Source: an uncultured Chloroflexia bacterium (GTDB lineage: Bacteria > Chloroflexota > Ktedonobacteria > Ktedonobacterales > JADMIN01). From it: 32,000 bases of DNA. Positions 10,668 to 32,000 of the stretch are shown one piece after another. A model generated the notes under the pieces. The model was not told where the DNA came from and did no database searches. It was given only the letters and a program-made list of their open reading frames with translations. Made by a program: the position numbers and the translations under genes. The stretch is from contig CAVRAI010000015.1 in the NCBI GenBank assembly GCA_963718915.1, positions 420,001 to 452,000 on the forward strand, given 5' to 3'. Positions within the stretch are counted from its first letter, which is position 1, and each line of letters opens with the position of its first letter.

Positions 10668-10722
10668 GGCGGCTGAAGCCGCGCCTAAGCGCCTTCGGCG
10701 GCAAAGCCCGCCTGCGCGGGCT
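10668..10722 (+). repeat. REP-like two-hairpin module, copy 1
   Basis: GCGGC-TGAA-GCCGC (10669-10682) and AGCCCGC-CTGC-GCGGGCT (10705-10722). It overlaps the last codons of the transposase ORF. Confidence 0.8.
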
Positions 10723-11140
10723 GAAAATCGGGGAGATGCTCCCACTCAGGTTGAAGAGTATTGGCAGCGTGGTGCTCACGTTGGTGAGCAATGTAAGCGC
10801 TCACCTCGGGGAGAGAACCTGGGCTAACAGAACCAGCGCCATAGGCACCCTGCCACTTGAAGAAACCATGTGTAGGATGCGCTTCATGCGTGGCGAGATG
10901 AGACGATGCGCCTTTCACCTGACGAACGAACTCGGCGAGCGAGATGGTCGCAGGCAATCCAACCAAGAGATGCACATGATCCTCAACGCCACCCAAGGCT
11001 ACCAACTTGCCACCAAGCTCAGCGCATTTGGCGGCAATCGCACGATGTGTTCGCCGCTCGAGTTCTCCTAAAAGCAATGGCAGGCGATCCCAGGTAGCCC
11101 ATACAATATGTATGTAGATTGCTGTACCTGCTTGACGCAT
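10685..11140 (-). mobile_element. HUH/Y1 tyrosine transposase, IS200-like fold, REP-associated (RAYT-like)
   Basis: YIHIVWATWDRLPLL N-terminal block, HUH motif in EDHVHLLV, and the catalytic-Tyr block SAYIAHQREHH (Y-x-x-x-Q). No tnpB partner. Flanked by inverted hairpin modules. Confidence 0.85.
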
Positions 11141-11484: not shown

Positions 11485-11587
11485 ATTACCTCCCTGGAAT
11501 GCCAACTTTTCATTGCTGTCGACCAATGCCGATTTGTTGGTGTCTATTATCGCTGCCAGCAACCCATATGGCAAGGAGGCAAATTTT

Positions 11588-11656
11588 AGCCCGCGCAGGC
11601 GGGCTTTGCGGCCGCAGCGGAGCGGAGGCCCATAGGCGCGGCTTCAGCCGCCTGCC
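11588..11656 (-). repeat. REP-like two-hairpin module, copy 3 (same orientation as copy 2)
   Basis: AGCCCGC-GCAG-GCGGGCT (11588-11605) ... GCGGC-TTCA-GCCGC (11637-11650) and a CCTGCC tail. Confidence 0.8.
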
Positions 11657-30646: not shown

Positions 30647-30913
30647 CCTGCTCCCGCCTGTCCCTGCAAGCTACGGATGCGTCGACCTGGACCGCCCCGC
30701 ATCCTGCATTAGAACCACTTCCACCCCACCCCGCCGCGAGAACTGTGCCAGCACCGTCTGGCGCTACGAGCGCCGCCCCACCTTGACAGTGATTTCTGTC
30801 TATGCGATAGTGATATCTGGCAGTATGCCGTGTTGGCTTTATTCGGCGCTTACCATCGCATCGCCACACAGTATACGTACCAGGCATTATAACACCAACA
30901 GACTTGCTTGTTA

Positions 30914-31212
30914 CGGCACTGACGGAACGAGTAGGCGCGCCGAGCGTATTCTCAGAGAGTCCGGGGCTGGTGAGACCGGATAGCGCTGGCGCCCGAAAAT
31001 CAATCCTGAGCCGCCACCCGACTCTCCGCTGTGTGAGGGCAGGCGTGGCCGGAATCCCGTCCGTTATCATACGGGGGGACATGTACACGTGTCCCAATTG
31101 AGCGGATTGCTGCGCGCGCTCATCTATGTAAACGAACGAGCGGCCACAGCAGTCATTTCGGGTGGTACCGCGAGAGATGCTCTCGCCCCGTTGGGGTGAG
31201 GGCCTTTTTTAT
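30914..31212 (+). promoter_or_regulatory. T-box riboswitch leader (transcription attenuation type)
   Basis: Elements occur in canonical order: K-turn, AGUA/GAA S-turn, AGAGA bulge, distal loop GGCUGGUGAGA, F-box CCGUUA (31061-66) and T-box CGGGUGGUACCGCG (31159-72). Antiterminator and terminator structures compete. Details are in the findings. Confidence 0.85.
31180..31210 (+). terminator. T-box terminator helix with U-tract
   Basis: CUCUCGCCCC (31180-89) pairs with GGGGUGAGGG (31193-202), with a 3-nt loop, then CC and UUUUUU (31205-10). Confidence 0.8.
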
Positions 31213-31288: not shown

Positions 31289-32000
31289 ATGGACGTGCAA
31301 TCTCCAACAACATTATTGCTCTACGCGACCGATAGCTATCTGAGCGGGTTCACGGCGCAGGTTGTCGCGACCGATGGGAGGAGCGTGGCGCTCGACCAGA
31401 CCGCCTTCTATCCCGGCGGGGGCGGCCAGATGGCCGACCGTGGCAAGCTGATACTGCTGACCGATGGGCGTCGTCTCGCCGTGGCGGGATTGAGCAAGCG
31501 CGACGGTGTCGTCTGGCACGAGCTGGCCGAGGACGCGGGCGAGCCGCCCGCCGTTGGCGCGAGTGGTCGCTGGGGAGATTGATTGGCCCTTCCGCTTTCA
31601 CATGATGCGCACGCATACCGCGCTTCACCTGCTCTGCGGCCTGATCTTTCGCGAATATGGCGCGCAGGTGACCGGCGGACAGATGTACCCCGACCGGGCG
31701 CGGATGGACTTCGCCCTCGGCACGATGACACCGGACTTCCTGCATGGCATCGAGCGGAGCGTCAATGAGGCGGTCGCGGCGGATCATCCCATTAAGGTCT
31801 ATGAATTGCCCCGTGATGAAGCGCTGCAAATTCCCGATTTGATACGTACCAAGATTAATCTGCTGCCGCCAGAGATTACCAGGATCCGCATCGTCGAGAT
31901 CGTCGGTGTGGATCTGCAAGCGGACGGCGGCACACACGTTCATAGCACGCGCGAGGTAGGTGGCATCAAGGTGCTGCGAACCGAGAATAAAGGCAAAGAA
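31289..32000 (+). pseudogene. AlaX-family (tRNA_SAD, HxxxH) trans-editing protein, interrupted by an apparent frameshift; 3' end outside the window
   Basis: The N-terminal part (31289-31582) reads ...LDQTAFYPGGGGQMADRG.... The continuation is in another frame: ...VVAGEIDWPFRFHMMRTHTALHLLCG...QADGGTHVHSTREVGGIKVL.... The two frames overlap only between 31494 and 31582. Confidence 0.75.

Follow-up and report, generated by a model that had tools for sequence, protein, structure and literature searches.

We analyzed a 32,000-nt stretch of DNA (hereafter, the window) from a 5.45-Mb genome in 17 contigs and find that a leader on its forward strand is very probably a class-I, transcription-terminating T-box riboswitch for tRNA-Ile(GAU), heading a predicted two-gene operon composed of an AlaXM-like gene and ileS. 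The leader's sequence elements, how they are conserved and covary, the tRNA that matches them and the order of the genes are direct observations; tRNA-dependent antitermination would follow by analogy with the established T-box model. The initial annotation, made from the window, had read the leader as responding to tRNA-Ile rather than to tRNA-Asn, tRNA-Ser or tRNA-Ala and had seen a mismatch between the sensed tRNA and the controlled function. The first part of this reading stands, and the second falls away when the sequence beyond the window is included.

The Rfam T-box model (RF00230) covers positions 30910-31193 of the forward strand from end to end (model positions 1-219; E 4e-19), comprising Stem I, Stem II, the IIA/B pseudoknot, Stem III and the antiterminator. 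The score of 85.7 bits lies below the gathering score of 93 for this model; an Rfam search of the window at the gathering threshold comes back without a T-box, and the match needed E-value mode. Orthologous leaders score between 57 and 103 bits against the same model, four of them above 93, and all 12 T-boxes of this GC-rich genome fall under the gathering cut-off.

At the base of Stem I, alignment to the Rfam model and the sequence itself place GC (30916-17), the K-turn UGA (30920-22) and the lower-helix GGA (30924-26) on the 5′ side (30916-30926), with the 3′ partners GC at 31010-11, GA at 31008-09 and UCC at 31004-06, such that U31004-C-C pairs with G30924-G-A. The 5′ strand of the Specifier Loop (30927-30933) comprises A30927, which lies opposite A31003, then CG and the S-turn AGUA (30930-33). 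The 3′ strand (30995-31003) comprises the S-turn GAA (30995-97), an A spacer, AUC (30999-31001), the purine A31002 and a further A at the mismatched top of the lower helix, a closing position supported by covariation. The distal elements of Stem I, which would dock the tRNA elbow (30954-30975), are an AG bulge, AGAGA (30954-58), and the distal loop GGCUGGUGAGA (30965-75); they fall on the conserved AGAGA and GgUUGGUGaaA columns of RF00230, so that K-turn, AG bulge and distal loop are all present at the sequence level on conserved columns. The F-box CCGUUA, in the region of the IIA/B pseudoknot (31061-31066), aligns with the CGUUA consensus of the model. Folded alone, Stem I does no better than shuffled sequence (z -0.2), and thermodynamic folding is uninformative for this GC-rich leader.

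The antiterminator aligned by Rfam (31159-31190) is built from helix A1 (31159-62/31187-90), a 7-nt bulge UGGUACC (31163-69) and helix A2 (31170-74/31182-86). The T-box sequence GGGUGGUACCGCG lies at 31160-72, with the bulge at its 5′ edge beside helix A1. An intrinsic terminator follows at 31179-31210, with an 11-bp stem (31179-89/31193-203), a GUU loop and then C and six U; its minimum free energy fold is -28.6 kcal/mol (z -3.2), and a terminator scan finds the same element. The 5′ arm of the terminator shares 31182-89 with the 3′ half of the antiterminator, and the two structures are therefore mutually exclusive. About 100 nt upstream of the leader, a consensus scan finds a putative promoter on the same strand (30783-30811), TTGACA-17 nt-GATAGT with a TG extension.

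The nine bases of the Specifier Loop 3′ strand, G-A-A-A-A-U-C-A-A, exceed the eight of the consensus by one, and this ninth base makes three registers possible in principle: AAU (Asn), AUC (Ile) and UCA (Ser). In the alignment to RF00230, GAA falls on the S-turn columns and A30998 is the spacer; AUC occupies the specifier columns and A31002 the position of the conserved purine, while A31003 already belongs to the lower helix, in whose first column it forms a non-standard pair with A30927. With this A-A mismatch closing the helix, a one-base slip may be conceivable from the single sequence. We therefore read the register from orthologous leaders. A search with the AlaX-like protein led to 29 of them in relatives, and public contigs of Ktedonobacterales (Chloroflexota; Dictyobacter, Tengunoibacter and Ktedonobacter among them) contributed 77; after removal of duplicates these yield 79 distinct Stem I sequences from Ktedonobacterales. 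Shared ancestry makes the counts non-independent, although it leaves the number of pair types untouched.

AUC is invariant across all 79 sequences. The base 5′ of it varies (A in 35, G in 28, U in 9, C in 7), and the base 3′ of it is A in 69, at the position where a conserved purine is expected (PMC7583486). Position 31003 covaries with its counterpart on the 5′ strand, the base just after GGA, as G-C in 34 sequences, A-U in 15, C-G in 2 and U-A in 1, and the remaining pairings are mismatched (A-C 15, A-G 9, A-A 2). Four Watson-Crick pair types mark this position as the top pair of the lower helix; the loop is therefore the canonical GAA-N-AUC-R, in which UCA is not the presented triplet. The top pair is an A-A or A-G mismatch in the genus of this organism, and the loop consequently looks as if it had one extra base.

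These data bear on the two other registers. Counted back from U31004 with A31003 unpaired, the triplet one base before the helix would be UCA, followed by A, and the leader would sense tRNA-Ser(UGA), which would suit an enzyme that removes serine from tRNA; moreover, the orthologues keep UCN (UCA, UCG, UCU and UCC), all of them Ser codons. We nonetheless reject this register as very improbable: 31003 behaves as a helix member, the A before UC is invariant although UCN needs none, the third base shifts among isoacceptor classes, the genome's own serS leader presents UCC with a UGGC bulge, and the downstream gene is ileS. The Asn register, with the specifier abutting the S-turn, we give a negligible probability and likewise reject. 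AAU does directly follow GAA here, and three other leaders of the genome have no spacer after GAA, but in this register the orthologues read AAU, GAU, UAU or CAU, and the Rfam alignment assigns the first base to the spacer.

The bulge and the tRNAs of the genome favor the Ile register as well. UGGU (31163-31166) is the complement of a tRNA 3′ end ACCA, its fourth base U fitting a discriminator A73, and this base is U in 75 of the 75 orthologous leaders in which the motif was located. Among tRNAs called with ARAGORN, whose discriminators we read from the tRNA sequences so as to remove one-base shifts of register in this genome and the relatives, tRNA-Ile(GAU) at G000:C4:748479-748554 has the acceptor end CAGGCCC-A-CC and hence A73; it sits in an Ile-Ala pair resembling those of rRNA spacers. 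In 21 of 21 relatives from the same order, its counterpart likewise carries A73. In contrast, tRNA-Asn(GUU) and all three tRNA-Ser genes found here (UGA, CGA, GGA) carry G73, so that the invariant UGGU fits tRNA-Ile and not tRNA-Asn or tRNA-Ser. A cognate tRNA for both specifier and bulge, tRNA-Ile(GAU) with A73, is thus present in the genome.

On the RNA itself, the initial annotation was accurate to the base: it had drawn the loop as GAA-A-AUC-A-A at 30995-31003 with the helix resuming at U31004 and UGGU in the bulge, had taken AUC followed by A for an Ile specifier, and had predicted A73 from the fourth bulge base, as expected for tRNA-Ile and not for tRNA-Asn or tRNA-Ser. Two of the checks it had proposed, on the triplet conserved in orthologous leaders and on the discriminator of the organism's tRNA-Ile, both come out in its favor, with no register other than AUC kept. 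It had also noted the absence of Ala (GCN) and Thr (ACN) codons, and indeed no such triplet lies within the 3′ strand of the Specifier Loop. A matching leader with AUC and UGGU precedes the orthologous gene in all 29 relatives and at 77 of the 80 additional loci from public data, which argues that this combination is not due to chance.

The other T-boxes of the genome provide a calibration. Read in the same register, the remaining 11 of the 12 matches all agree with their downstream genes: leuS (specifier CUC, bulge UGGU), valS (GUG, UGGU), serS (UCC, UGGC), trpS (UGG, UGGU), thrS (ACC, UGGA), proS type I (CCA or CCC, UGGU), proS type II (CCC, UGGU), pheS (UUC, UGGU), aspS (GAC, UGGC), metX (AUG, UGGU) and alaS (GCC, UGGU). 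As alaS carries its own GCC leader, the Ala leader of this genome is separate from the leader studied here. None of the 12 T-boxes other than ours has an Ile specifier, and leuS, valS and eight further synthetase genes have leaders of their own.

Several of these loci have features of their own. The trpS bulge (L005, G000:C3:97601-100888) would meet the G73 of tRNA-Trp in a U-G wobble, while the other readable bulges of this genome match their discriminators by Watson-Crick pairing. At the thrS locus (L006, G000:C4:157210-160466), about 670 nt separate the T-box from the first thrS-matching stretch; this gap could hold an unrecognised N-terminal part, a further frame break or an extra small gene. 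The two prolyl-tRNA synthetase genes, type I and type II, each lie behind their own Pro T-box (L007, G000:C4:494043-497330; L009, G000:C15:80567-83820). Upstream of metX, on the minus strand (L011, G000:C4:787451-790794), a SAM riboswitch (71 bits) precedes the Met T-box in tandem, and the gene thus appears, from sequence, to have two sensors.

What the leader controls becomes clear downstream. The AlaX-like gene opens at 31289 on the forward strand and leaves the window at 32000, with its stop TGA 45 nt beyond the window end. The next gene, at G000:C15:452042-455465, is ileS, identified by TIGR00392 (262 and 441 bits in two frames), Anticodon_1 and DUF5915. We find no second ileS in the genome; the other matches are valS, leuS and further class I synthetases. 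The initial annotation had inferred that the leader senses a tRNA unrelated to the gene it controls. As the window stops before ileS, that reader could not have seen it, and the mismatch is only apparent, an artefact of the window end: with the sole ileS directly behind the AlaX-like gene, the Ile specifier fits the second gene of the operon. The leader is, as far as its sequence can tell, an ordinary ileS T-box with one unusual extra gene in the operon.

Two starts are conceivable for the ileS frame, one overlapping the alaX-like stop (ATGA) and one about 140 nt later, and a scan of the junction finds no promoter-like or terminator-like site between the two genes, which we infer to be co-transcribed from the leader. 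The first 45 residues of the ileS frame (L013:1242-1376; G000:C15:452042-452176), which overlap the alaX-like stop, are rich in Lys, Ser, Thr and Ala; they are conserved within the genus, relatives outside the genus do not align there, and the stretch is either an N-terminal extension or an untranslated spacer.

Alternatively, the T-box might govern the AlaX-like gene alone, with ileS transcribed separately and the Ile signal aimed at the editing protein. Some relatives have a gap of 200-650 nt between alaX-like and ileS, which leaves room for a promoter, and at three sampled Chloroflexota loci from two families the two genes adjoin without a T-box. Yet the tight junction in this genome, the bare stretch between the genes, the lack of any other Ile T-box among the 12 in a genome where so many synthetase genes have their own, and a gene order kept throughout Ktedonobacterales leave separate transcription only a slim chance, and we favor a shared transcript.

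Both genes are broken in the assembly. Measured against a relative that shares 90% identity in the AlaX-like protein, one extra base near 31561 breaks the AlaX-like frame (the frame-break region spans 31494-31582 of the window), and further extra bases interrupt ileS near G000:C15:453133 and 455127. At 28 of 29 relative loci a single open frame spans the AlaX-like gene, L019 being the one with a frame break. As ileS is single-copy and essential, the breaks are likely assembly indels rather than signs of pseudogenes; they limit what can be said about the intactness of the operon in this organism.

All 29 relatives have the order T-box, alaX-like, ileS, as do 77 of the 80 Ktedonobacterales loci from public data; of the other three, two lie on contigs that end just upstream of the gene. 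Farther away, the arrangement with an AUC T-box and ileS recurs in six other sampled Chloroflexota families. Of 20 alaX-like loci sampled from 18 other families of the phylum, nine are followed by ileS within 3.5 kb, and an AUC T-box lies upstream at six of these nine. Rfam in E-value mode found no T-box at 12 of the 20 loci, all outside Ktedonobacterales and three of them with ileS downstream, so the link to a T-box does not hold across the whole phylum. In the divergent family f4, which belongs to the same taxonomic order as this organism, ileS comes next at 3 of 3 loci, and two of the three have a T-box motif upstream. A literature search on T-boxes with AlaX or with Ktedonobacter, incomplete in coverage, returned no paper describing the operon.

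AlaX-M proteins are free-standing editing proteins that deacylate Ser- or Gly-tRNA-Ala. By profile and orthologue alignment, the first gene of the operon (31289-32000 within the window, forward strand) is AlaXM-like, with an Asp variant of the zinc motif (HTALH ... QADGGTH). An intact orthologue matches the AlaXM model NF040865 over positions 1-233 of 234 at 290.3 bits, just under the equivalog cut-off of 300; the window's two fragments of the gene reach 67.4 and 200.4 bits. The intact orthologue also aligns over its full length with the editing domains of the archaeal AlaRS structures 2ZZE and 2ZTG, where QADGGTH falls on QACGGTH: the zinc-binding HxxxH motif is present (HTALH), and the CxxxH motif is absent, its zinc-ligand Cys replaced by Asp. 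Neither HTALH nor QADGGTH varies among the 29 relatives; QADGGTH recurs at all 20 loci sampled in other Chloroflexota families, and in f4 the motif reads DxGTH. An AlaX-like match at E 1e-15 is present in 191 of 301 sampled genomes of the phylum, a tally that takes in canonical paralogues as well as three genomes (G216, G266 and G309) whose loci were not read. None of the three canonical CGGTH paralogues sampled in the phylum lies beside ileS, and the Asp clade, to judge from these loci, tends to travel with ileS.

The predicted placement of an AlaX-like editing gene under tRNA-Ile control is thus real and conserved, and we regard the pairing of alaX-like with ileS as a mild curiosity in want of an explanation. 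A speculative answer, which we consider doubtful, is that the Asp-variant protein is not a general Ser-tRNA-Ala editor but a factor functionally coupled to IleRS; it might, for example, be a trans-acting deacylase for mischarged tRNA-Ile, or for another error that is frequent under isoleucine scarcity. Such coupling, if true, would explain why Chloroflexota keep the gene in the ileS operon under tRNA-Ile control. Should the protein act on tRNA-Ile or aid IleRS fidelity, the range of AlaX-type trans-editing would be extended; should it be a mere passenger, nothing new follows.

In the mechanism we propose, the anticodon GAU of uncharged tRNA-Ile would pair with AUC (30999-31001) in the Specifier Loop, with A31002 stacking beneath the codon-anticodon duplex, and the distal platform of Stem I would receive the tRNA elbow. 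The free ACCA 3′ end would then pair with UGGU (31163-66) and favor the antiterminator over the terminator (31179-31210), allowing RNA polymerase to continue into the AlaX-like gene and ileS. Charged Ile-tRNA would not stabilise the antiterminator, and transcription would end at the U-tract.

T-box control of ileS has long been known, including in Chloroflexi, where an Ile-tRNA-ligase T-box is described in Dehalococcoides (PMC2494555). With the transcriptional ileS T-boxes (RF00230) of S. aureus, B. subtilis and Dehalococcoides, our leader shares the K-turn, the S-turn Specifier Loop, AUC followed by a purine, the AG bulge, the distal loop, Stem II, the IIA/B pseudoknot, the match of UGGU to A73, the competition between terminator and antiterminator and an operon that contains ileS. 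It differs in that the first gene is AlaXM-like rather than ileS, in the A-A or A-G mismatch at the top of the lower helix and in a score slightly under the Rfam gathering cut-off. Actinobacteria such as Mycobacterium and Nocardia have translational ileS T-boxes (PMC11297988, PMC7583486) with the same ligand, tRNA-Ile, and the same type of regulated enzyme; in these, Stem I is short and lacks the distal platform, and the leader sequesters a ribosome-binding site, whereas the leader studied here combines an intrinsic terminator with a Stem I of full length. To the T-box field, then, this is a routine Ile leader with an ordinary mechanism. It does exemplify how a mismatched closing pair makes the Specifier Loop look out of register, and how covariation settles the matter.

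Overlapping specifiers for Asn and Thr occur in the two-codon “NT-box” of Clostridium acetobutylicum. The loop here resembles it in holding the overlapping triplets AAU, AUC and UCA; unlike in the NT-box, just one register is conserved, just one fits both bulge and operon, and there is no evidence for dual reading.

On the protein side, the comparison is with AlaX-M (NF040865; P. horikoshii PH0108, PDB 2E1B) and the AlaRS editing domain (2ZZE, 2ZTG). The similarity is full-length and covers the N-terminal beta-barrel part and the tRNA_SAD domain as well as two motifs, HxxxH and GGTH. Unlike AlaX-M, every orthologue examined has Asp for the zinc-ligand Cys, the score stays just below 300, and the gene sits beside ileS under what is predicted to be a tRNA-Ile switch. 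For specialists, the interest lies in this Asp-for-Cys AlaX-like clade paired with the IleRS gene in Ktedonobacterales and several further Chloroflexota families.

Elsewhere in the window, a pair of elements that is probably no CRISPR array, with just two copies lying on opposite strands about 900 nt apart, consists of inverted copies of a GC-rich 24-nt hairpin at 10700-10723 (+) and 11587-11610 (-), which Rfam matches to CRISPR-DR28 at 37-39 bits.
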